Below are positions 13,831 to 43,742 of a stretch of DNA of 64,000 nucleotides, one piece after another (the stretch's first letter is position 1; each line of letters starts with the position of its first letter). The stretch is from a virus (taxonomy: Duplodnaviria > Heunggongvirae > Uroviricota > Caudoviricetes), in the IMG/VR virus record IMGVR_UViG_3300017707_001811, positions 101,573 to 165,572 of that record. The stretch is one strand, 5' to 3'. The notes under the pieces were generated by a model. It saw only the letters and a program-made list of their open reading frames with translations. It was not told where the DNA came from and ran no database searches. The position numbers were made by a program, and so were the translations under genes.

Positions 13831-14740
13831 TTCTCTGAGTAAGTCGTATTCCCGCCTTCGTGTGACGAATATGAGCACTGAAAAGAGATAAACGATAATG
13901 GGCCGTGTATGGTCCTTAAATAAACTACGAAAGTAGGATAAAGTGGTCTCCCCCGTGTTGAGGAGGCTGCGGTTTGAAACCCCGTAAGGGGAATTGAACT
14001 CAAGTACACAAGTGGGATATCACCACACCTTTAGTACCGAGGGTAACACTGTAGGGAAAGTGGTAGGGTGACATGGCAATGTGGATTGTCAAGTTGAGTT
14101 CGGAAGAACAATAAGAATAACCCATAGGAATCAAGTAAGAAGTATAGTCATCCAACTATATAATTGCGGATTCCAATATGATAGAATACTTAAAACCGAA
14201 AGGTAAGGTAGAGAACGAGTGGTGTCGCTACTACCCCTAAGGATGACCTACCAAGGTCGCTTTCTGAAGTAATCTAAAAATATGGAGGTGGGGACACTTC
14301 ACGGAGTAGTTTAGTATTCTGTCACTCAAAAGGAGACGGAGCTTACGGTGGACCACTACTCTGACACATCCACGACACAAAACCTATTAATTTCACTGTT
14401 AATGAAAATTTAATACTAAAAATTACAAGGAAAAGTGTCCATCAGGTTTGAGTGAAAGGTGACTACATAGTAATGAGCCGTTCATTGCACACAAAGACCC
14501 CAAGTCAATGTGTATTGTTAAGAAAGACCTTTAATCCCGCAAGGACGAACTGGGGTGGCAACCTCGGAAAGAGTTAAGTACTGATAGAGTAATTCAGACC
14601 TCAAGGAGTGGTATACCTAAAAGACCGTCACTGAGAAATACTTCTCAAAAGGAAGTGGATACGAAGGGAACTAATAATCCTTCAAAAGATTCTCAATCAA
14701 AGCTGTAATCTCAGGCTTCGTTTAACTTAAAATATTATAT
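13831..14740 (+). ncRNA. large (about 0.9 kb) structured RNA of unknown class
   Basis: No ORF of 60 aa or more on either strand; GC well above flanks; several GNRA-capped hairpins (CCCC-GTAA-GGGG at 13980, GG-GCAA-CC at 14556, CC-GAAA-GG at 14196). Three tandem promoters lie upstream and a tRNA plus an intrinsic terminator lie downstream. Confidence 0.5.
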
Positions 14741-14812
14741 TGTGGGATAGAGCAGAGGTAGCTCGAAAGGCTCATAACCTTTAGGTCGGGGGTTCGAATC
14801 CCTCTCCCGCTA
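14741..14812 (+). tRNA. tRNA-Met(CAT)-like with U1-U72 mismatch
   Basis: Acceptor TGTGGGA/TCCCGCT (6/7 bp), D stem GAGC/GCTC, anticodon arm AAAGG-CTCATAA-CCTTT, T arm GGGGG-TTCGAAT-CCCTC. Confidence 0.55.
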
Positions 14813-14844
14813 CTAAATAGAAGTAGGTTTCACCTGTCGCAGGC

Positions 14845-18730: not shown

Positions 18731-20593
18731 ATGGGAAAAATAATAGGTATTGACTTGGGAACTACAAATTCTTGCGTAGCGGTTATGGAAGGTAGTGACC
18801 CTGTAGTAATTACAAACAGTGAAGGAAAAAGAACCACCCCTTCAATTGTCGCATTTGCTAATGGTGGTGAAAGGAAAGTTGGTGACCCTGCTAAACGACA
18901 GTCGGTTACTAACCCTGATAAAACAGTGTATTCAATTAAAAGATTTATGGGAACTAGCTTTGAAGAAAGTAAAAAAGAAGCTGGCAGAGTCCCATACAAA
19001 ATTATAAATGGTAACAATACACCTAAAGTTGAAATTGATAAAAGAAATTACTCACCACAAGAAATTTCGGCAATAGTACTCCAAAAGATGAAACAAACTG
19101 CTGAGGACTATCTTGGACAAGAAGTAACTGAGGCTGTAATTACGGTACCTGCATATTTTAATGACGCTCAAAGACAAGCGACAAAAGAAGCTGGTGAGAT
19201 TGCAGGACTTACAGTAAGAAGAATCATAAACGAACCAACTGCCGCGGCTCTTGCGTATGGTTTAGATAAGAAATCTAAAGATATGAAAGTTGTAGTATTT
19301 GACTGTGGTGGTGGTACTCATGATGTATCCGTACTTGAACTTGGAGACGGTGTATTTGAAGTACTCTCAACTGATGGAGACACTCATCTTGGTGGTGACG
19401 ACTTTGACCAAGCAATTATTGATTGGTTAGTTATGGAATTTAAAGATGAAAATGGATTGGATTTAAAACAAGACCCAATGGCACTTCAAAGACTTAGAGA
19501 AGGAGCTGAAAAGGCAAAAATTGAACTTTCATCATCACCGTCAACTGAAATTAATTTACCATATATCATGCCAGTTGATGGAATACCAAAACATTTAGTA
19601 CGTACTCTATCTCGAGCTAAATTTGAACAATTAGTTGACGAATTAGTTAAAAGAACAATTAAACCATGTGAGTCGGCTTTAAAAAATGCAGGACTTAAAG
19701 TTTCTGAAATTGATGAAATTATTTTAGTTGGAGGTACAACAAGAATTCCTGTTATTCAGGATGCGGTTAAGAAGTTCTTTGGAAAAGAACCGTCAAAAGG
19801 GGTTAACCCTGATGAAGTAGTCGCTTTAGGGGCGGCTATCCAAGGAGGAGTTTTAGCTGGTGATGTTAAAGATGTGCTACTTTTAGATGTCACACCACTA
19901 TCACTTGGTATTGAAACAATGGGTGGGGTTTTTACAAAGTTGATTGAGGCAAACACAACTATCCCAACCAAAAAGTCACAAGTATTCTCAACCGCTGTAG
20001 ATAATCAACCATCAGTTGAAATCCATGTATTACAGGGTGAAAGAGCTATGGCTAAAGACAACAGAACCATTGGTCGTTTCCATCTTGACGGATTACCACC
20101 AGCAATGAGAGGTATTCCACAGATTGAGGTAACATTTGATATTGATGCTAACGGTATTATTAATGTGTCGGCATTGGATAAAGGAACCAATAAACAACAA
20201 AATATTCGAATCGAATCTTCTTCAGGACTTTCAAAAGAAGAAATTGAAAAAATGAAAAAAGAGGCTGAAATGAATGCGGAATCTGATAAGAAAATTAAAG
20301 AAGAGACTGAAACAATTAACAAGGCAGATTCAGTAATTTTCCAAACCGAGAAGGCTTTAAAAGATTTAGAGGATAAAATTGGTGACGAAGATAAAAATAG
20401 AGTGATGGTTGCTTTGGAAGAATTAAAAACCGCACATCAGAATAGAGACGTAGAAAAGATTAATTCTTCTATTGATAATGTTAATAACATCTTTCAAGGA
20501 ATAAGTCAGAATATATATCAACAGATGTCAGACATTGTGAACGAAGATAAAGATGTTGAGGTAACCGATGTTGATTTTGAAGAAGTTAAGTAA
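18731..20593 (+). CDS. dnaK: chaperone DnaK (Hsp70)
   Basis: [14 protein letters not shown] and [12 protein letters not shown] ATPase motifs; full-length 620 aa Hsp70 architecture. Confidence 0.95.
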
Positions 20594-20650: not shown

Positions 20651-21220
20651 ATGAAGGTAATATTTTTAGACCACGATGGGGTTATTTGCTTATCAAATAA
20701 CTGGGGGTCACGATTTAAGAAACAAAAGAAATATAGAAAAAAATTGAGTCAATCAGTAATGACAATGCCTCTTGATGCTCGTTTTGATAACTTTGATAAG
20801 AAAGCGATTAAGGTGTTAAATCAAATCTTGGAACAGACTGGTGCTGAAATCGTTGTTTCTTCCGATTGGAGGATTTGGTGTTCAGTTGAGGAAATGGGTG
20901 ATTATTACGAAAGTCATGGAATTATCAAACGTCCAATTGATTTTACAGGTAATGTTATTGATGAATCAAAAGTTACATGGCACCGAAATTGGGATTTGGA
21001 AGGAACAAGGAGTTTGGAAATCCAAGGTTGGTTAAAAGAACACCCTGAGGTAACACAATGGGTAGCTATTGATGATTTGAATATGGGTAAAAAAGGTCTA
21101 CACTACTCAACGGAATTTGAACACGAATGGGGGTTAGATAATTTTGTACATACTCCTCTTAGAAATGAAGGTATAAAACAAGTTGGTATTAAAGAAAAAA
21201 TTTTATCATTTTTAAAATAA
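20651..21220 (+). CDS. HAD-superfamily hydrolase-like protein
   Basis: N-terminal FLDHDGVI (DxDG motif I). Confidence 0.4.
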   Translation: MKVIFLDHDGVICLSNNWGSRFKKQKKYRKKLSQSVMTMPLDARFDNFDKKAIKVLNQILEQTGAEIVVSSDWRIWCSVEEMGDYYESHGIIKRPIDFTGNVIDESKVTWHRNWDLEGTRSLEIQGWLKEHPEVTQWVAIDDLNMGKKGLHYSTEFEHEWGLDNFVHTPLRNEGIKQVGIKEKILSFLK

Positions 21221-21431
21221 AAACTTAAAAATATTGACAAATAAATAAAATTTTAATACTTTTGTTAAACAGTTATATATTTAATTAAAAACAATGAAAC
21301 AGAACTCGATACATAACATAAGTAATCTCCCGATGAATGTGGGCCAAGCTTGGTTTGCGATTAAAGGGCAAGATTGCCGTTGTTTAAGGGTTCTTAATGA
21401 GATGTAAGCGTATCATCAAATATATAAAAAA

Positions 21432-21470
21432 AGAACCCTGAACAATTAAAAAGTTCGGGGTTTTTTTTTG
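21432..21470 (+). terminator. intrinsic terminator
   Basis: AACCCTGAAC...GTTCGGGGTT stem followed by T9. Confidence 0.7.
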
Positions 21471-21507
21471 ATGTTACAAAACAGTTCTTTGACATATTGG
21501 TGAATTT

Positions 21508-21547
21508 CGGGATGTAGCTCAGTTGGCTTAGAGTACGTGCTTTGGGA
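21508..21547 (+). pseudogene. 5' fragment of a disrupted tRNA (acceptor, D arm and anticodon-arm 5' part)
   Basis: CGGGATG-TA-GCTC-AGTTGGCTTA-GAGT-A-CGTGC-TTTGGGA, with nothing pairing downstream. Confidence 0.45.
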
Positions 21548-21590
21548 GCTCAAAACATGTTTTTTCGACTTTCATGATATTTATTATTAA

Positions 21591-22148
21591 ATGAATATTA
21601 TGGAAATAACTAAATATGTTTTGATAGAAGTTGTAAACACTTCTAAAAGTAAATCAGAAATACTTAAAAAGCTTGAATTGAGTGATAATGGTAGAAATAG
21701 AAATCATTTAAATAAATTAATTTCTGAATTTGGTGTTAGTTTAGATATTTTGAAAAAAAATAAAAGAATTAATACTAAATTTATTGAAAAAGAATGCCCT
21801 GTTTGTGGTAAAATCTTTGAAACTAAAAAAACAGATAGAGAAAAAACAACTTGTTCTTATAGTTGTTCGAACAGTTATTTTAGAAGCGGAGAAAATAATC
21901 CAAATTGGAAAGATGATAGTTACAGAACAACATGTTTTTTATATCATGAGAAGAAATGCGTAGTGTGTGGTGAAGATAAAATAATTGACGTTCATCATTA
22001 TGATGAAAACAAAAAAAATAATAACAAAGAAAATTTAATTCCTCTTTGCCCAACTCATCACATGTATTGGCACTCAAGATATAAAAATTTAATTGAAAAA
22101 ACTGTTAACAACTATAGAGATGATTTCATTAAACGAGTAATGGGCTAA
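21591..22148 (+). CDS. HNH endonuclease
   Basis: CVVCGEDKIIDVHHYDENKK...NLIPLCPTHHMYWH. Confidence 0.7.
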   Translation: MNIMEITKYVLIEVVNTSKSKSEILKKLELSDNGRNRNHLNKLISEFGVSLDILKKNKRINTKFIEKECPVCGKIFETKKTDREKTTCSYSCSNSYFRSGENNPNWKDDSYRTTCFLYHEKKCVVCGEDKIIDVHHYDENKKNNNKENLIPLCPTHHMYWHSRYKNLIEKTVNNYRDDFIKRVMG

Positions 22149-22208
22149 TTGGTAAGCCGCCATATTTGGGATATGGACATCATGTGGGTTCGAGTCCCAC
22201 TTATTCGA
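22134..22208 (+). tRNA. tRNA-Pro(TGG), overlapping the HNH gene stop
   Basis: Acceptor CGAGTAA/TTATTCG, D stem GGCT/AGCC, anticodon arm CCATA-TTTGGGA-TATGG, T arm GTGGG-TTCGAGT-CCCAC. Confidence 0.75.
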
Positions 22209-22211
22209 CAC

Positions 22212-22236
22212 GCAGGTTCGAGTCCTGTCATCCCGA
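22212..22236 (+). pseudogene. 3' fragment of a disrupted tRNA (T arm, acceptor 3' strand and discriminator)
   Basis: GCAGG-TTCGAGT-CCTGT-CATCCCG-A; CATCCCG is perfectly complementary to the CGGGATG of the 5' fragment at 21508. Confidence 0.45.
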
Positions 22237-22284
22237 CGATTAAAATTATTTTACATTTTAATCAAAATTGAATATATTTGTACT

Positions 22285-22701
22285 ATGAAACATAGTATGG
22301 AAAATGGCGATAAGTCTAGAAATGGGAATCAATTAGAGTCCTATTTCATGGAAAAAACTGGATTAAAAAAAATTCAGAAGAAAGAAAAGCCTTTTTTTAC
22401 TAATAGCCATGGTAAAAAACAAATTATTGATTTTGATTTTTATGTTAAAATTAATGATGACGATGTTTACATTGATTTAACAACAACTTATAGAAGTGAT
22501 AGGTTAAAACAAAAAGCATATAATGCTTTAATGTATAAATCAAAGATTAACAAACCTTGTAAATTTTATATGGGTGTTGGTAAATTAGTTGAACATGGAA
22601 AGAAAAAAAATCCTGTGTTAATTGAAGGTATTGATGGAGTATTAACAGTTGAGGATTTAGTACAAATGATTTCTAAAAGGTCAGATACTCAAGTGGTTTA
22701 A
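22285..22701 (+). CDS. hypothetical protein
   Basis: ORF starting 4 nt after the TATATTTG -7 box at 22273-22280. Confidence 0.4.
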   Translation: MKHSMENGDKSRNGNQLESYFMEKTGLKKIQKKEKPFFTNSHGKKQIIDFDFYVKINDDDVYIDLTTTYRSDRLKQKAYNALMYKSKINKPCKFYMGVGKLVEHGKKKNPVLIEGIDGVLTVEDLVQMISKRSDTQVV

Positions 22702-22752
22702 GGGGCCTGTCTGCAAAATAGGTATTCGTCGGTTCGAATCCGACTCTGACCT
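22679..22752 (+). tRNA. tRNA-Cys(GCA)
   Basis: Acceptor GGTCAGA/TCTGACC, anticodon arm CCTGT-CTGCAAA-ATAGG, T arm GTCGG-TTCGAAT-CCGAC, discriminator T. Confidence 0.75.
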
Positions 22753-22827
22753 CAAAAAAAAATAAAAAATTTCTTTGAAATTAAAAAAATAGACGTATCT
22801 TTGTACTCACAAATAAACAATAAAAAT

Positions 22828-23577
22828 ATGATTACACTCCAAGAACTCCAATCAGTAGTACCTTCAGTATTCAACACTCAAAAAGCTCAGAAGCTTTCTG
22901 ACAAGTACACAGTTGTTCCAACCATTGACGTAGTAAATCAATTTATGCAAGCAGGGTGGGAAGTGTCAAGTGCAAAACAAGTAGGGTCAGGTGTATACGG
23001 CAAACACTCAGTTCGTCTCCGTAACTCTGAACTCCCAAAGGTAGGTGATTCTCTACTTGAGGCTATCATCACTAACTCTCACGATGGTCGTACCAAACTC
23101 CAAGTAGGAGCAGGGTTGTACCGATTGGTGTGTTCTAATGGTCTTGTAGTACCAATGCAAGAAATGGTTAACATTAACCAGCGTCACATGAACATTCAGA
23201 TGGATGAAGTGAATCAAATCACAGAGAAGTTCATTCAGATATCACCAATCATTGAACGTTCAGTTAATAAAATGATTGACGTTAAAATGGATACTGAAAA
23301 GAAAATTGATTTTGTAACCAAGGCGGTTGGAATTCGTTGGAAAAATACCGAAGACATCTCAAGTATGACTCTTGAGACGATTATCGAACCTCTTCGTGGT
23401 GATGATAACAACGATACACTTTGGCATACTTTCAATGTAGTACAGGAGAAGTTGATTAGAGGTGGATTTGTAAAATCACAAGGTAAAAATGTGAGAACAG
23501 TCAAAGGGATTACTTCCCTAAATATGGACACAATGATTAATACAAAATTGTGGGAATTGGCTGAAACATACATTTAA
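22828..23577 (+). CDS. hypothetical protein
   Basis: ORF; -7 box TATCTTTG at 22797-22804. Confidence 0.45.
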   Translation: MITLQELQSVVPSVFNTQKAQKLSDKYTVVPTIDVVNQFMQAGWEVSSAKQVGSGVYGKHSVRLRNSELPKVGDSLLEAIITNSHDGRTKLQVGAGLYRLVCSNGLVVPMQEMVNINQRHMNIQMDEVNQITEKFIQISPIIERSVNKMIDVKMDTEKKIDFVTKAVGIRWKNTEDISSMTLETIIEPLRGDDNNDTLWHTFNVVQEKLIRGGFVKSQGKNVRTVKGITSLNMDTMINTKLWELAETYI

Positions 23578-23799: not shown

Positions 23800-23883
23800 A
23801 CGTCAGTGGCTGAACGGCTTAGGCAACGGTCTCCAAAACCGTGAACATTATGTTCTACGTAGGTTCGAATCCTACCTGGCGTG
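23800..23883 (+). tRNA. class-II (long variable arm) tRNA with apparent anticodon CCA
   Basis: Acceptor ACGTCAG/CTGGCGT, Ser-like D region, anticodon arm ACGGT-CTCCAAA-ACCGT, variable hairpin GAACA-TTA-TGTTC, T arm GTAGG-TTCGAAT-CCTAC, discriminator G. Confidence 0.5.
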
Positions 23884-23890
23884 CTAATAT

Positions 23891-23965
23891 TCTCAGATAG
23901 CTCAGTTGGTTTAGAGCACTTGTCTGATACACAAGAGGTCGTGGGTTCGAGTCCCACTCTGAGAA
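23891..23965 (+). tRNA. tRNA-Ile(GAT)
   Basis: Acceptor TCTCAGA/TCTGAGA, anticodon arm CTTGT-CTGATAC-ACAAG, T arm GTGGG-TTCGAGT-CCCAC. Confidence 0.8.
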
Positions 23966-23974
23966 CTTAAAAAT

Positions 23975-24049
23975 GGGGGCGCATGTACCAAGGCTTGGCG
24001 AGAAACACTTGCAATGTTTCTGTGGAGGTTTCGATTATCTCCGTCTCCA
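23975..24049 (+). tRNA. tRNA-Ala(TGC)-like with aberrant D arm (possible pseudogene)
   Basis: Strong anticodon arm GAAACA-CTTGCAA-TGTTTC and T arm GAGGT-TTCGATT-ATCTC; acceptor GGGGGCG/CGTCTCC has 2 GU pairs; no regular D stem. Confidence 0.4.
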
Positions 24050-24057
24050 CTAAATTC

Positions 24058-24130
24058 GCTCCAGTAACTCAGTGGTGAGAGTGTCACTCTTATAAGGTGA
24101 AAGTCGTCAGTTCAATTCTGACCTGGAGTA
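24058..24130 (+). tRNA. tRNA-Ile(TAT)
   Basis: Acceptor GCTCCAG/CTGGAGT, D stem ACTC/GAGT, anticodon arm TCACT-CTTATAA-GGTGA, T arm GTCAG-TTCAATT-CTGAC. Confidence 0.65.
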
Positions 24131-24419: not shown

Positions 24420-24576
24420 CGAGGTCCTGAATTAACAGGACAACCCCCACCTCCGATATGGCAGTCGGTCCGTTAATCCGATGAAGATGGGGTTTTTGAA
24501 AAGTGTCTCGGTAAGCTCTGACGAAAGTCAACTACGAGGTCTCGGTGGACAGAAGGCCTCTGATTCCACCCAAAAT

Positions 24577-27191: not shown

Positions 27192-27650
27192 ATGAAAATT
27201 ACTAAAATTGGAAAAAAAGGTTTGGAATTAATTAAATCTTTTGAAGGTTTAAAATTAAAACCTTATTTGTGTGATGCGGGAGTGCCAACAATTGGTTTTG
27301 GAAATACTTTTTATGAAAATGGTAAAAAGGTCACATTAAATGACCAAGTGATTACTGAACAAAGAGCAGTTGAATTACTTGAATATTCATTATTAAAGTT
27401 TGAACAATATGTTGATTCATATTGTCGTGATGATATAAACCAAAATCAATTCGATGCATTAGTTAGTTTTTGTTATAATTTAGGACCTGTTAATTTAAAA
27501 AATAGTACTTTATTGAAAAAAGTTAATAAAAACCCTAATGATATAACAATTAGAAATGAGTTTATGAAGTGGAATAAAGCAGGCGGAAGAGCTTTGAAAG
27601 GATTAACTAAAAGAAGAACCGCTGAAGCTGATTTATACTTCAGTAAATAG
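27192..27650 (+). CDS. endolysin, GH24 lysozyme (T4 e / lambda R family)
   Basis: GLELIKSFEGLKLKPYLCDAGVPTIGFGNT catalytic region. Confidence 0.85.
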   Translation: MKITKIGKKGLELIKSFEGLKLKPYLCDAGVPTIGFGNTFYENGKKVTLNDQVITEQRAVELLEYSLLKFEQYVDSYCRDDINQNQFDALVSFCYNLGPVNLKNSTLLKKVNKNPNDITIRNEFMKWNKAGGRALKGLTKRRTAEADLYFSK

Positions 27651-28068: not shown

Positions 28069-28142
28069 GTGTCTATAGTGTTAGCGGTCTAGCACGAAGG
28101 GTTGTGGTTCCTTTAGCACCAGTTCGAATCTGGTTAGACACA
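28069..28142 (+). tRNA. tRNA-His(GTG), G-1 and CCA encoded
   Basis: Acceptor GTGTCTA/TAGACAC preceded by G, anticodon arm AAGGG-TTGTGGT-TCCTT, T arm ACCAG-TTCGAAT-CTGGT, then A-CCA. Confidence 0.75.
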
Positions 28143-28380: not shown

Positions 28381-28935
28381 ATGAAAAAGTTAATATTTTT
28401 ATTTCTAACATTAATTCCGTTTTTATCTTTCTCACAATTGACAACATCAAATCCTGATACGGTATGTATAGGAGATAATTCATCAATATATCAAGTTACA
28501 GATATACCAGGATATACTTATACATGGAATGTATCGTCTCCTGGAGTTCTAACTTCAGGACAAGGTAGTAATCAAATAACTGTTGATTGGTCATCAGCAC
28601 CTGGAGGTATTATATCGAACGGAGTTAGTGTGTACGCAACAACTCCTGAAGGATGTGAAGGTCCCCCAATCCTAATCGATGTTTTTATTCTTGAAATAAT
28701 TCCAGTAATTACACCATTAATTTTTTGTGAAGGTGACCCATGTGAAGATTTAGTTGCAACACCAGTTGGAGGTATTTTTACAGGACCAAATATTGTAAAC
28801 GGACAGTATTGTCCAATAACTGATGGAGTAGAAACGGTAACATATACCATAACAGAAGCGGGATGTATATTTACAGCAACTGCTGATATGACGGTATACC
28901 CTATTCCTGTTTTAGATAATATTTCACATGATTAA
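28381..28935 (+). CDS. secreted protein (signal peptide); C-terminus ...PVLDNISHD
   Basis: N-terminal MKKLIFLFLTLIPFLSFSQ; Thr/Gly-rich beta-rich body. Confidence 0.45.
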   Translation: MKKLIFLFLTLIPFLSFSQLTTSNPDTVCIGDNSSIYQVTDIPGYTYTWNVSSPGVLTSGQGSNQITVDWSSAPGGIISNGVSVYATTPEGCEGPPILIDVFILEIIPVITPLIFCEGDPCEDLVATPVGGIFTGPNIVNGQYCPITDGVETVTYTITEAGCIFTATADMTVYPIPVLDNISHD

Positions 28936-29510
28936 TGAAATTTGTAAAAACAATATTTTTATTTTTATTAATCATGACTGTATTTTCACAGTCTAATCAA
29001 AAATTAGATATTTGTGTTGAAGACTCAAGACATGAATATACGTATAGTGTTAATTCTGATACTCCGAATACTATATTTTATTGGTATGTTGATGGGGTAT
29101 ATCATTTCGGTCAAACACTAACAATAGATTGGTCAACGTACCAACCTGGAGAACACACTATAACCGTTTACGGAATCTCAAATGATTGTTCTTCACTACC
29201 TGTTACATATAAAGTTTTTATAGACGAATGTTCAAGTATATACATACCTAATGCTTTTACACCTAATGATGATGGTATTAACGATGGTTGGTATCCTATT
29301 GGTGTTGGTTGGGAATGGATTGAAGTTCTAATTTTTGATAGATGGGGTATTTTAGTTTTTTCATCCACAAAAATAAAAGATTCTTGGATTGGTAATTTTA
29401 GAAATGGAGGGTATTATGTTCAAAATGACGTTTATGAGTATAAAGTTACTTGGAAAGGTGTTAACAAAGAACCTGAAATAATATTTGGCCATGTTACATT
29501 AATACGATAA
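28935..29510 (+). CDS. secreted protein with type-B T9SS C-terminal sorting domain (CHU_C-like)
   Basis: Own signal peptide; C-terminus IYIPNAFTPNDDGINDGW...YEYKVTWKGVNKEPEIIFGHVTLIR. Confidence 0.6.
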   Translation: MKFVKTIFLFLLIMTVFSQSNQKLDICVEDSRHEYTYSVNSDTPNTIFYWYVDGVYHFGQTLTIDWSTYQPGEHTITVYGISNDCSSLPVTYKVFIDECSSIYIPNAFTPNDDGINDGWYPIGVGWEWIEVLIFDRWGILVFSSTKIKDSWIGNFRNGGYYVQNDVYEYKVTWKGVNKEPEIIFGHVTLIR

Positions 29511-33052: not shown

Positions 33053-34678
33053 ATGGCTAAATTCAGAAACACAGGATTAAAAGAGAAGTTGGACTCTACA
33101 AAACCAAAGAAAAATCTCGTCGCAAAAATGTCGGTTCCTAAACCAAACACAACTAACCTACAAGGTTATGAAGCTTATGATATCGATAATTGGCTACGAC
33201 TAATCTCACTGTTAAACACATCAAAACTTCAACCACAATTTTATCGTTCAGAGAATGATACAATGCGTGAACTGAAGAAATTAATTGATGTATGTGGTAA
33301 AGAAGACCCATACTTCGCGGCACAGTGTATTGTATACTCTCGTTGTGTCGGAGAAGGTATGCGTTCAATCAACCACTTGGCGGCCGTTTACTTGGCACCA
33401 TATATGAGTGGTAAAGAATGGTCAAAACGTTTCTTCTCCGTATGGGATAAGAAAAACCAAAAAGGTGGAACGATTTTCCGTCCTGATGATATGGCAGAAA
33501 TCGTTGCGGCATATACTGCGATGAATGATAAGAGTATCACAAACGCAATGAAAAAAGGTTTCCGTGAAGCACTTGAAAAAATGGATGCTTATAGTCTGTT
33601 AAAGTACAAATCGGCAGTACTTGACATGATTAATTTGGTACATCCAGACCCAAATGAATCAAAAGCTCTTGTTGATTACATGGATAAAAAAGTACCAGCG
33701 TTCGAAGCAATCATTAAAGGGTATAATGTATCTGCGGATACTTGGGAAGTTGCACAATCTGACGCAGGTCAAATTGTTGCACAAGCGGTTCGTGAAGGTA
33801 AACTCTCAGAATCAGAAGCTAAAGAAGTATTAACTGAACAAAAGTCAGAAAACTGGAAAGGGTTATTGACTGAAGGTAAGTTGGGTATTTTGGCCGCTAT
33901 TCGAAATATGAGAAACATTCTTACCAACAAACCTGAGGCGAAAACAATTGACACTCTGTGTGATTTGGTTTCAAATCCTGAATTGATTAAAAAAGGTAAG
34001 ATTATGCCATACCAACTTGACTTGGCAAATGAAGTAATGAACTCTGAGTTTAGTGATACTAACTCAAGAAAGTTGTCAAAAGCTTTATTGACAGGTTATG
34101 AGTTGGCGGTTCCGAACCTTAAAGAACTACTTACAGGTAACAACCTTGTAATCATTGATATGTCAGGTTCTATGGACACTGAAGTACTTGACCCTAACAG
34201 AAAAACAAATTACAAGAGTACTTGTATGGATAAAGCAAGTCTAATCGGAATGACAATTGCTAAGGCGACAAATGCAGATGTTATCCGTTTCGGTTCAAGT
34301 GCTGAGTATATTACTTATAACCCTAACCAAGATGTGTTCAGTTTGGCAAAATCTATCCGTAAAGGAATGGGTGGTACAAACTTGTCACAAGCTTGGGCGA
34401 AGGCTCAAAGTTCAGGTAGAAAATACGACCGTGTTTTTATCTTGTCTGACAATGAGTGTAACATGGGTTCAACATACCGTAATTATACAAGTTATGTTGA
34501 AAAGGTTGGTGACCCATACGTATATTCAATTGACCTAGCATCTTACGGAACTACCGCAATTGCAGGACCTAAAGTAAGATACTACTACGGTTATGGATAC
34601 TCAATGTTTGATGATATCGCTAAGAGTGAGTTCAACCCAAACTATCATATTGAAAAAATCCGTAAGATTGAAATTTAA
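33053..34678 (+). CDS. rsr: Ro60/Rsr orthologue (TROVE domain plus C-terminal vWA/MIDAS)
   Basis: 541 aa. Co-linear matches to vertebrate/bacterial Ro60: N-terminal N..G..AY....L.RL..LL...FYRSE, KIMPYQLD (Ro60 RIHPFHIL), vWA DMSGSMDT, GGTNLSQAWAKAQ (Ro60 GSTDCALPMLWAQ), YDRVFILSDNECN (Ro60 ADIFIVFTDCETN), C-terminal GYGYSMFDDI (Ro60 GFDSGALDVI). Confidence 0.8.
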   Translation: MAKFRNTGLKEKLDSTKPKKNLVAKMSVPKPNTTNLQGYEAYDIDNWLRLISLLNTSKLQPQFYRSENDTMRELKKLIDVCGKEDPYFAAQCIVYSRCVGEGMRSINHLAAVYLAPYMSGKEWSKRFFSVWDKKNQKGGTIFRPDDMAEIVAAYTAMNDKSITNAMKKGFREALEKMDAYSLLKYKSAVLDMINLVHPDPNESKALVDYMDKKVPAFEAIIKGYNVSADTWEVAQSDAGQIVAQAVREGKLSESEAKEVLTEQKSENWKGLLTEGKLGILAAIRNMRNILTNKPEAKTIDTLCDLVSNPELIKKGKIMPYQLDLANEVMNSEFSDTNSRKLSKALLTGYELAVPNLKELLTGNNLVIIDMSGSMDTEVLDPNRKTNYKSTCMDKASLIGMTIAKATNADVIRFGSSAEYITYNPNQDVFSLAKSIRKGMGGTNLSQAWAKAQSSGRKYDRVFILSDNECNMGSTYRNYTSYVEKVGDPYVYSIDLASYGTTAIAGPKVRYYYGYGYSMFDDIAKSEFNPNYHIEKIRKIEI

Positions 34679-43667: not shown

Positions 43668-43742
43668 GAAGAAGTAGCTCAGACGGTAGAGCATAGGGTT
43701 AGAAATCCCTTGTGCCGCGAGGTTCGATTCCCGCCTTCTTCA
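43668..43742 (+). tRNA. tRNA with irregular anticodon arm (4-bp stem with 8-nt loop TTAGAAAT, or 3-bp stem with anticodon AGA) and a bulged T stem
   Basis: Acceptor GAAGAAG/CTTCTTC perfect, D stem GCTC/GAGC, T loop TTCGATT, discriminator A. Confidence 0.45.

Follow-up and report, generated by a model that had tools for sequence, protein, structure and literature searches.

The window analysed here is a stretch of 64,000 nucleotides (nt) from a phage of the Caudoviricetes (IMG/VR record IMGVR_UViG_3300017707_001811, positions 101,573 to 165,572). At 21508-22236 it contains two ends of one tRNA-Pro(TGG) gene and, between them, a gene for an HNH endonuclease followed by a second, complete tRNA-Pro(TGG). 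We propose that the resident tRNA-Pro(UGG) gene was disrupted by a free-standing HNH homing module of 661 base pairs (bp) that brought its own tRNA-Pro(UGG) of a different clade, a reading to which we give a probability of about 0.7. What carries it can be read directly from the sequences: the anatomy of the locus, the ancestor-type gene that relatives carry, the discrete nature of the module, the linkage of the nuclease family to tRNA-Pro, a decay variant of the nuclease gene and the structural conservation of the tRNA borne by the cassette. The features of this locus all lie on the plus (+) strand; other loci are called by our own handles (L and a number).

The two tRNA-Pro pieces and the module between them

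The 5' fragment of the resident tRNA-Pro(TGG), delimited by direct reading and explicit parsing, occupies positions 21508-21549 and corresponds to nt 1-40 of the tRNA. It reads CGGGATG TA GCTC AGTTGGCTTA GAGT A CGTGC TTTGGGA GC and comprises the acceptor strand, the D arm, the 5' strand of the anticodon stem, the complete TGG loop and 2 nt of the 3' strand of the stem. After nt 40 (21549) the sequence continues into TCAAAACATG... The 3' fragment (22210-22236) is made of the dinucleotide AC, the T arm, the acceptor and the discriminator A; positions 22212-22236 read GCAGG TTCGAGT CCTGT CATCCCG A, that is T arm, 3' strand of the acceptor and discriminator, and the AC that precedes the T arm is possibly the end of the variable loop. 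The acceptor strand CATCCCG is complementary to CGGGATG (21508-21514) at 7/7 positions, and when the region 21000-23000 was scanned for an orphan T arm with a complementary upstream acceptor, CGGGATG/CATCCCG was the only pair found. Judging from these letters, the original tRNA-Pro gene has lost from a few to about 8 nt, because no junction rebuilds both a full anticodon stem and a variable loop (see below).

The first-pass annotation had noted a 5' tRNA half at 21508 that is never completed, a T arm at 22212-22236 with a CATCCCG strand complementary to the 5' acceptor and, between the halves, an HNH open reading frame (ORF) whose stop is overlapped by a well-formed tRNA-Pro(TGG). This anatomy was recovered throughout: the half was parsed as nt 1-40, the acceptor strands pair at all seven positions, and the inner genes were called by ARAGORN, Rfam, Pfam and PHROG. 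To this we can add that the split gene is itself a tRNA-Pro(TGG), and hence an isoacceptor of the tRNA inside the insert.

For comparison, 80 IMG/VR contigs were retrieved by means of the neighbouring HAD-family gene, with which they share 61-88% amino-acid identity; a megablast search of 25 kb against deposited phage genomes gave no close relative and only short matches to the HNH and tRNA genes. Eight of the 80 relatives carry an uninterrupted tRNA-Pro(TGG) of 76 nt in which the two pieces of the window find their counterparts at the correct spacing. Over its first 30 nt the 5' piece is identical at 29/30 positions to the intact tRNA-Pro of L010 and of the seven other relatives, and the 26-nt 3' piece is identical to the intact genes at 23/26. 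The comparison with related phages suggested in the first-pass annotation therefore yielded a continuous tRNA gene in eight of them, and not a pair of unrelated remnants. Downstream of the HAD gene, the HNH gene, a 138-codon ORF (ORF138) and a DUF932 gene were found in none of the 80 HAD-linked relatives (0/80).

The mobile module (leader, HNH gene and intact tRNA-Pro) extends over 661 bp, from 21550 to 22210, and was delimited by blastn against L166, a related phage array. Positions 3262-3922 of L166 align with 21550-22210 of the window at 80.5% identity over 662 columns, and the alignment ends exactly at both tRNA breaks. The module of L166 has the same leader, the same HNH gene, the same fusion of the HNH end to tRNA-Pro and a tRNA of the same clade, and it occupies the array slot where relatives carry Ile-Pro. 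We considered the flanks of the L166 module as decayed tRNA-Pro remnants and rejected this on alignment against shuffled sequences (p=0.30 upstream and 0.97 downstream).

The leader of the HNH gene (TCAAAACATGTTTTTTCGAC...GATATTTATTATTAAA, positions 21550-21590) was defined by alignments with L100, L166, L167 and L168, whose free-standing HNH copies have in common the pattern TCAAAAC..TTTTT.CGA..GATATTTAT.AT. The TTGAC element found upstream in the family is absent from the module of the window. The HNH gene itself (21591-22148) encodes 185 amino acids, or 182 if translation starts at 21600. It shares its final 15 nt with the 5' end of the tRNA-Pro at 22134-22208, and its TAA stop (22146-22148) falls in the D loop of that tRNA. 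The ORF reaches HNH_2 of Pfam at threshold (21.2 bits for a cut-off of 21) and the HNH endonucleases of PHROG with E=1.9e-14; only HNH families match. Compared with its homologues the protein is complete in length, and it retains every invariant Cys, His and Asn residue, with the motifs HH...N...N...CPTHH and CxxC present in an alignment of 32 sequences. The AlphaFold model (predicted local distance difference test, pLDDT, of 89) predicts an N-terminal helical domain, a Cys4 zinc ribbon hairpin, the HNH beta-beta-alpha fold and a C-terminal helix. The best-ranked fold matches of this model are the HNH nucleases McrA, Cap5 and IscB, none of them significant (E>=0.066), and a sequence search of solved structures gave weak matches only (IcmJ/DotN, IscB and McrA; E>=0.017).

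An independent view of the locus came from L165, an assembly deposited in ENA (sample ERZ27247975) that is identical to positions 20980-23214 of the window, both tRNA pieces included, except for a deletion of 54 nt. The deleted segment (22030-22083) lies between direct repeats of 11 nt (AAAATTTAATT) and encodes ENLIPLCPTHHMYWHSRY, the end of the HNH catalytic core, so that the L165 protein (P0001) has 164 amino acids. L165 is thus a decaying copy of the endonuclease present in the population. In L108 the HNH gene has no annotatable N-terminal third and is a second degenerate copy in the family.

The intact tRNA-Pro(TGG) of the cassette, hereafter Pro', lies at 22134-22208 (ARAGORN; Rfam, 56.8 bits) and is the only tRNA-Pro found by these two programs in the 64-kb window. 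It differs from the split gene in the acceptor, the D arm, the anticodon stem and the length of the variable loop. The clade of Pro' is marked by an invariant D arm, GGCTAATTGGTAAGCC, and by a variable loop of 7 nt; its other members come from the Tenacibaculum phage Gundel_1, the Xanthomonas jumbo phage XbC2, an uncultured phage of 642 kb, L166 and L168. Across six members of the clade, 100% of the alignment cells are paired and 15 of 21 pairs have changed on both sides; none of 500 shuffles scored as high (0/500) and no register shift came close. By this covariation Pro' is a tRNA under structural selection, and the proline identity features C1:G72, A73, the UGG anticodon and G37 can all be read in it.

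The HNH family, its tRNA neighbours and tRNA remnants

We then looked at the surroundings of the HNH family, using a homologue set of 838 protein-database matches (E<=1e-5). Among the ten best homologue loci in IMG/VR, eight have a tRNA-Pro(TGG) called by ARAGORN directly upstream of the HNH gene and a ninth has an interrupted tRNA-Pro. When homologues were chosen solely for the length of their contigs, 5/5 adjoined a tRNA-Pro(TGG), the one in L170 being a Pro-like gene that was not called. The same adjacency was seen in Xanthomonas phage XbC2, Serratia phage BF, an Erwinia phage, L003 and L167, the last of which has the order tRNA-Pro, HNH, tRNA-Pro. More distant members of the family adjoin tRNA-Ala(TGC). 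Presence and absence of the nuclease gene can be compared within one array: L097 and L098 have the order Arg-Pro-small ORF-Ile, and L099 and L100 have Arg-(Pro-like)-HNH-Ile. The tie of the family to one isoacceptor suggests that the protein recognizes a specific tRNA gene, a suggestion supported by the repeated breakpoints near nt 40 that are described below.

Several members of the family lie beside damaged tRNA genes. L168 has the 5' half of a different tRNA-Pro allele that also ends after nt 40 (...CTCGG TTTGGGA CC|); the CC that follows its loop fits its own stem, CTCGG, as the GC in the window fits CGTGC. In L108, an intact tRNA-Pro and the HNH gene lie between two pieces of a single tRNA (nt 1-17 and nt 49-76), and in L114 an orphan T arm with its acceptor directly follows an HNH-fused tRNA-Pro. 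In L109 (2131-2449) a tRNA-Pro(TGG) is interrupted after TTTGGGT, between nt 38 and 39, by a structured insert of 243 nt, with a free-standing member of the HNH family directly downstream. The fold of this insert has a z score of -5.45, a U.G pair is possible at its 5' junction and it ends in G. A search of the insert against Rfam matched no family; from the features read by hand and the stability of the fold, it is probably a group I intron that Rfam did not detect.

A comparable trace lies beside a gene of a second HNH family. At 7684-8296 of L053, an HNH gene whose product is 44.6% identical to the HNH protein of Gundel_1 is followed by a chimeric tRNA, in which the 5' part of a tRNA-Thr(TGT) and the 3' part of a tRNA-Pro are joined at a shared GGTCG (nt 44-48); the tRNA-Ile and the 5' part of the tRNA-Pro are deleted. 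The HNH gene of Gundel_1 overlaps the same kind of tRNA-Pro as that of the window. Homology between the two proteins was considered and rejected, since only the last residues, which are encoded by the tRNA, match; by their sequences, the HNH proteins of the window and of Gundel_1 belong to two unrelated families. The idea that tRNA-Pro is unusually polymorphic among close relatives was rejected as well, the tRNA genes for Trp, Phe, Gln, Gly and Ala being equally diverse.

ORFs whose ends overlap the start of the next tRNA were common in the arrays (L103, L113, L114, L120, L167, L168 and L171). Further overlaps of this kind occur at 2512-3018 of L001 and at 27192-27650 of the window, where a lysozyme gene overlaps a tRNA-Ser; HNH genes in these arrays run into tRNAs for Asn, Ala, Pro or Ile. 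Read from sequence, the pattern suggests that the 3' ends of mRNAs are generally coupled with the processing of tRNAs.

Array context, proposed mechanism and competing explanations

Upstream of the tRNA array lies an intrinsic-terminator hairpin (CCCTGAAC..GTTCGGGG) followed by a run of T (21436-21469, direct reading). It terminates a small leader ORF at 21294-21407, several Rfam leader and small-RNA models match it as a terminator stem, and it is kept in 22 relatives. The hairpin is followed at 21488-21507 by a promoter-like motif, TTTGACATATTGG..., that was recognized by eye in alignments and by blastn with L010, L053, L168 and L173 and is the putative promoter of the tRNA array. In the relatives, the small ORF, the terminator and TTTGACATATTGG run directly into tRNA-Asn, and the array continues to ...Ile(GAT)-Pro(TGG)-Phe/Ala; compared with them, the window has extra sequence from 21508 to about 23630. 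The usual place of tRNA-Pro, after tRNA-Ile(GAT), is empty in the window. As located by alignment with L018, the empty slot lies at 23967-23973: L018 7944-8059 corresponds to 23858-23973 of the window and L018 8142-8243 to 23973-24076, and the tRNA-Pro of L018 (8060-8137) is unmatched. As a separate observation, the 37-amino-acid ORF and the strong terminator (21294-21469) that precede the array promoter motif have the same arrangement in 22 relatives, and a similar one can be made out in L168, L173 and Gundel_1. The pair has the look of a leader unit that has been conserved.

From these comparisons we infer a cleavage specificity, a cut position, a repair route and a mode of expression control for the HNH module. 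The HNH protein would read tRNA-Pro(UGG) genes as DNA, and the break would fall in the 3' strand of the anticodon stem or in the variable-loop region, at about nt 40-48. Repair of the break would copy the module from a donor genome into the tRNA-Pro gene by way of non-homologous or microhomology-based joints, with the loss of a few to about 8 nt of the target. The leftover pieces (nt 1-40 and nt ~47/49-76) would be inactive debris; the cassette tRNA-Pro would take over the decoding of CCN codons by a phage tRNA, and because of this replacement the insertion would cost the phage little. An interrupted target could no longer be cut, and the carrier genome would be protected. In the window the resident tRNA-Pro is physically interrupted, and Pro' differs from it in the anticodon stem and by its 7-nt variable loop, differences whose effect on cleavage is putative. 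The HNH gene, having lost the promoter element upstream of it, would probably be transcribed from the promoter of the tRNA array, because the TTGAC element is absent; no terminator-like site was detected before 23598. Processing of the downstream tRNA by RNase P would strip the stop codon from the HNH message, because that codon sits inside the tRNA, and would so limit the output of endonuclease.

A broader version of this mechanism is tentative, and we regard it as possible but doubtful. According to it, the HNH family would be an isotype-specific drive for the replacement of tRNA genes, breaking tRNA-Pro(UGG) genes near nt 40 through recognition of the anticodon arm, spreading together with a cleavage-resistant allele that has the 7-nt variable loop, and replacing the resident tRNA-Pro in phages whose hosts are unrelated; a sister branch would play the equivalent part for tRNA-Ala(UGC). 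Carrier genomes may then be protected by the variant allele, by an intron in the anticodon loop as in L109, or by a target split by the cassette as in the window.

A number of observations weigh against insertion of the module by the HNH nuclease. The target of the protein, its cut position and its activity itself are deduced from comparative anatomy, and the breakpoints in the family do not all coincide (nt 17, 40, 40 and 47-49). The intact tRNA-Pro genes that stand beside the HNH gene in other phages keep the TTTGGG loop, which leaves self-immunity unexplained, and the link to tRNA-Pro could be due in part not to targeting but to co-inheritance of a Pro-HNH unit. At the left junction there is no homology to donor-type sequence, and the insertion was therefore not classical homology-driven homing. 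The position of the split gene is also unusual, as it heads the array, between the array promoter and tRNA-Asn, and the usual slot after tRNA-Ile(GAT) is empty; this position demands at least one further rearrangement or the import of a whole block. A before-state at the same locus, with an intact tRNA-Pro followed by ORF138 and tRNA-Cys, was looked for and none was found, because the homologues of ORF138 sit in other contexts (L173; L174-L177). Finally, the exact composite was found only in the genome of the window and in L165: the 22-nt 3' junction has no match in IMG/VR, and six metagenome matches to the 19-nt 5' junction have nothing else in common with the window and are most simply due to chance.

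The explanation that best survives beside insertion by the nuclease, although we judge it unlikely, is that the array is a hot spot of recombination, in which illegitimate or microhomology-based exchanges shuffled tRNA segments and carried the HNH gene and its tRNA along, the break not being made by the HNH protein. Close relatives vary widely in what their arrays contain and in which order, the positions of the ORF138-tRNA-Cys and DUF932 modules also change from one relative to another, and the split gene lies outside its usual slot. Short shared sequences are at hand as well, since the Thr/Pro chimera of L053 is joined at the shared GGTCG and the 5' ends of tRNA-Asn and tRNA-Pro both carry GATGTAGCTCAG. 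However, the L053 chimera likewise adjoins an HNH gene, of the second family, and the tRNA wrecks cluster beside the HNH family of the window. They are tRNA-Pro wherever the isotype can be read (window, L168 and L109), those of L108 and L114 being Pro-like by their C1:G72/A73 ends. In addition, two different tRNA-Pro alleles end after the identical nt 40, and the ends of the module are sharp and reproducible.

Still less probable, in our view, is a relic of amplification such as that known for SegB in T6. Tandem amplification of a [tRNA-Pro + HNH] unit would have joined the HNH gene, by its 3' end, to a tRNA 5' end, and later deletions would have left partial copies, without any insertion into a single gene. 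The HNH ORF indeed runs into the 5' end of tRNA-Pro in the window, L114, L166, L167, L168 and Gundel_1, and L167, XbC2 and BF carry two tRNA-Pro genes around or before the HNH gene. But as alleles Pro' and the split gene differ too widely to be duplicates of recent origin; the two outer pieces fit together into a single gene, for which relatives have one intact match; and in L166 the inner module occurs alone. Amplification may thus account for the origin of the HNH-tRNA fusion, but not for the split.

The first-pass annotation had offered two explanations of the locus. The first, a homing cassette inserted into or recombined through a tRNA gene, is the one we favour and is supported by the continuous tRNA of relatives, the discrete module of L166 and the tie of the family to tRNA-Pro, together with the presence/absence and decay polymorphisms. 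The second, a split or intron-containing tRNA, was not supported. It would imply repair at the RNA level, with the halves forming a functional tRNA-Pro either by splicing of the 660-nt insert or by pairing of two pieces. The acceptor, D arm and T arm are intact, the acceptor strands pair 7/7, and in a family member, L109, the anticodon loop of the tRNA-Pro does hold an intron-like insert. We enumerated every junction that leaves a variable loop of 3-8 nt (69 candidates) and scored the pairing of the stem. None of the 69 gave 5/5 pairs in the anticodon stem. The best junction, which draws on 3 nt at the acceptor end of Pro', reached 4/5 pairs with a central U.U; excision of 21552-22206 (or 21550-22204) in this way yields a molecule of 74 nt with a 4-nt variable loop. 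A simple join of GC to ACG makes a perfect stem, but the variable loop is then absent and the T stem has 4 bp. ARAGORN, run on 4,290 artificial exon joins, did not discriminate among them, as it calls nearly anything with good acceptor, D and T arms.

Other properties of the locus also speak against such repair. Rfam cmscan of 21200-22900 at E<=10 detected no intron family and no group I core. The insert is made of an ORF with its own leader and a complete tRNA, homologous to free-standing modules elsewhere, and the break, which follows nt 40, lies in the anticodon stem rather than in the loop. The module of L166 has no halves around it, and L168 has the 5' half only. As a split tRNA of the archaeal type, the pair of halves lacks nt 41-43 (the 3' strand of the stem) and most of the variable loop, and to our knowledge no archaeal-type splicing endonuclease occurs in phages of bacteria. 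We therefore consider repair at the RNA level very improbable. An assembly artefact, in which reads of two phage variants, each with its own tRNA-Pro allele, would have been joined into a chimera, can practically be dismissed: conserved tRNA stretches can mislead assemblers and the data are metagenomic, but the independent assembly of L165 has the identical composite with both junctions plus its 54-nt deletion, and neither junction lies in the conserved stretches of the T loop or D loop.

Known systems and other features of the window

The closest described counterpart is SegB of T4 and T6, a free-standing GIY-YIG homing endonuclease encoded in a tRNA gene cluster (PMC2330249; PMC13096335). 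SegB cleaves tRNA genes at a recognition site that includes the T-loop motif GGTTCRANTCC, and in T4 it drives the inheritance of its own gene and of the neighbouring tRNA genes; the segB ORF is separated from its stop codon during maturation of tRNA-Arg, which was proposed to limit expression (PMC2330249). SegB can also remodel the array and amplify tRNA genes, the junctions falling at tRNA 5' ends (PMC2330249; PMC13096335), and its neighbourhoods show no preference for an isotype (PMC13096335). Like segB, the HNH gene of the window lies between tRNA genes and its end meets the downstream tRNA. The module would work in a SegB-like way, but it differs in that the nuclease belongs to the HNH type and not to GIY-YIG, hence is no member of the SegB group, and in that its family is tied to tRNA-Pro(UGG), with a distant branch tied to tRNA-Ala(UGC). 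Moreover, no case of SegB has been described in which a resident tRNA is split around the endonuclease and a replacement isoacceptor. HNH-type site-specific endonucleases within the tRNA cluster of T5, with a proposed control by transcript processing, are cited in the account of SegB (PMC2330249).

A full-text literature search found no phage tRNA gene described as split around an endonuclease and a replacement isoacceptor. We know of no split tRNA reported for the T5 cluster. In Aeromonas phage Aeh1, mobE, a free-standing gene of the HNH family, reportedly splits the nrdA gene of its host phage in two; the nrdA protein pieces are said to reassemble and keep their function, whereas the tRNA pieces of the window cannot, and a second complete gene would supply the function. 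In the collaborative homing described for cyanophage psbA, a free-standing endonuclease gene lies beside an intron-interrupted target and the intron shields the site of the carrier. The arrangement in L109 resembles this; in the window, the cassette itself would be the shield. Integrative elements also target tRNA genes, through integrases, and make the gene whole again with a 3' end that they carry themselves, a duplicate of only the attachment-site part of the same tRNA. In contrast, the cassette of the window has no integrase and carries an entire divergent isoacceptor, and the gene that it entered is left broken.

It is already known that tRNA clusters of phages harbour homing endonucleases, and their role in reshaping arrays is of recent interest. 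The selfish element proposed here would not lie next to its target but would have broken a resident tRNA gene, and would supply a ready substitute, a low-cost way to invade a useful gene in which the replacement tRNA would be the nucleic-acid counterpart of intron or intein splicing. Such a model could help to explain why alleles of the same tRNA vary strongly among closely related phages and how tRNA genes move between phages of different hosts. In annotation, tRNA fragments beside HNH genes would be informative scars.

Directly downstream of the split gene, at 22285-22701 (+), ORF138 encodes 138 amino acids with a weak match to Cfr10I/Bse634I (Pfam, E=0.031), and several of its homologues match the same family. 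Its stop codon lies inside a tRNA-Cys (22679-22753). The unit of ORF138 and tRNA-Cys is kept in L097-L100 and occurs elsewhere in L173, between the HAD gene and the leader ORF; closer homologues of ORF138 lie in neighbourhoods without tRNA genes (L174-L177). By its sequence the unit may be a second mobile nuclease module.

Other tRNA-like and RNA elements were noted in and around the array. At 23974-24052 (+), a tRNA-Ala(TGC)-like element with the loop CTTGCAA and a pairable acceptor, called neither by ARAGORN nor by Rfam, occupies the place of tRNA-Ala in relatives and is 95% identical in L166. Between tRNA-Phe and tRNA-Gly, a segment of about 155 nt (24421-24576, +) is 83-93% conserved in L010, L018 and L005; neither an ORF nor an Rfam family was called in it, and it may represent a small RNA not yet described. 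Two tRNAs missed by ARAGORN were found by Rfam, at 28069-28142 (tRNA-His(GTG), 53.3 bits) and at 43668-43742 (52.0 bits), both on the plus strand. Upstream, a full-length GOLLD RNA (RF02032, 316.8 bits, E=7e-90) lies at 14302-14717 (+), directly before a tRNA-Met (14741-14813).

As for proteins, the window encodes at 33053-34678 (+) a Ro60-like protein of 541 amino acids with TROVE/Ro60 and vWA domains; matches to YrlA, a Y RNA-like RNA, were sub-threshold only, both in the window and in L104. It also encodes a DnaK homologue (18731-20593), the HAD_SAK_2 protein, an RNA-repair-associated HAD (20651-21220), and a CHU_C domain of type IX secretion (28935-29510). The phage is probably a jumbo phage, with related contigs reaching 200-320 kb, and the CHU_C domain points to a host in the Bacteroidota.

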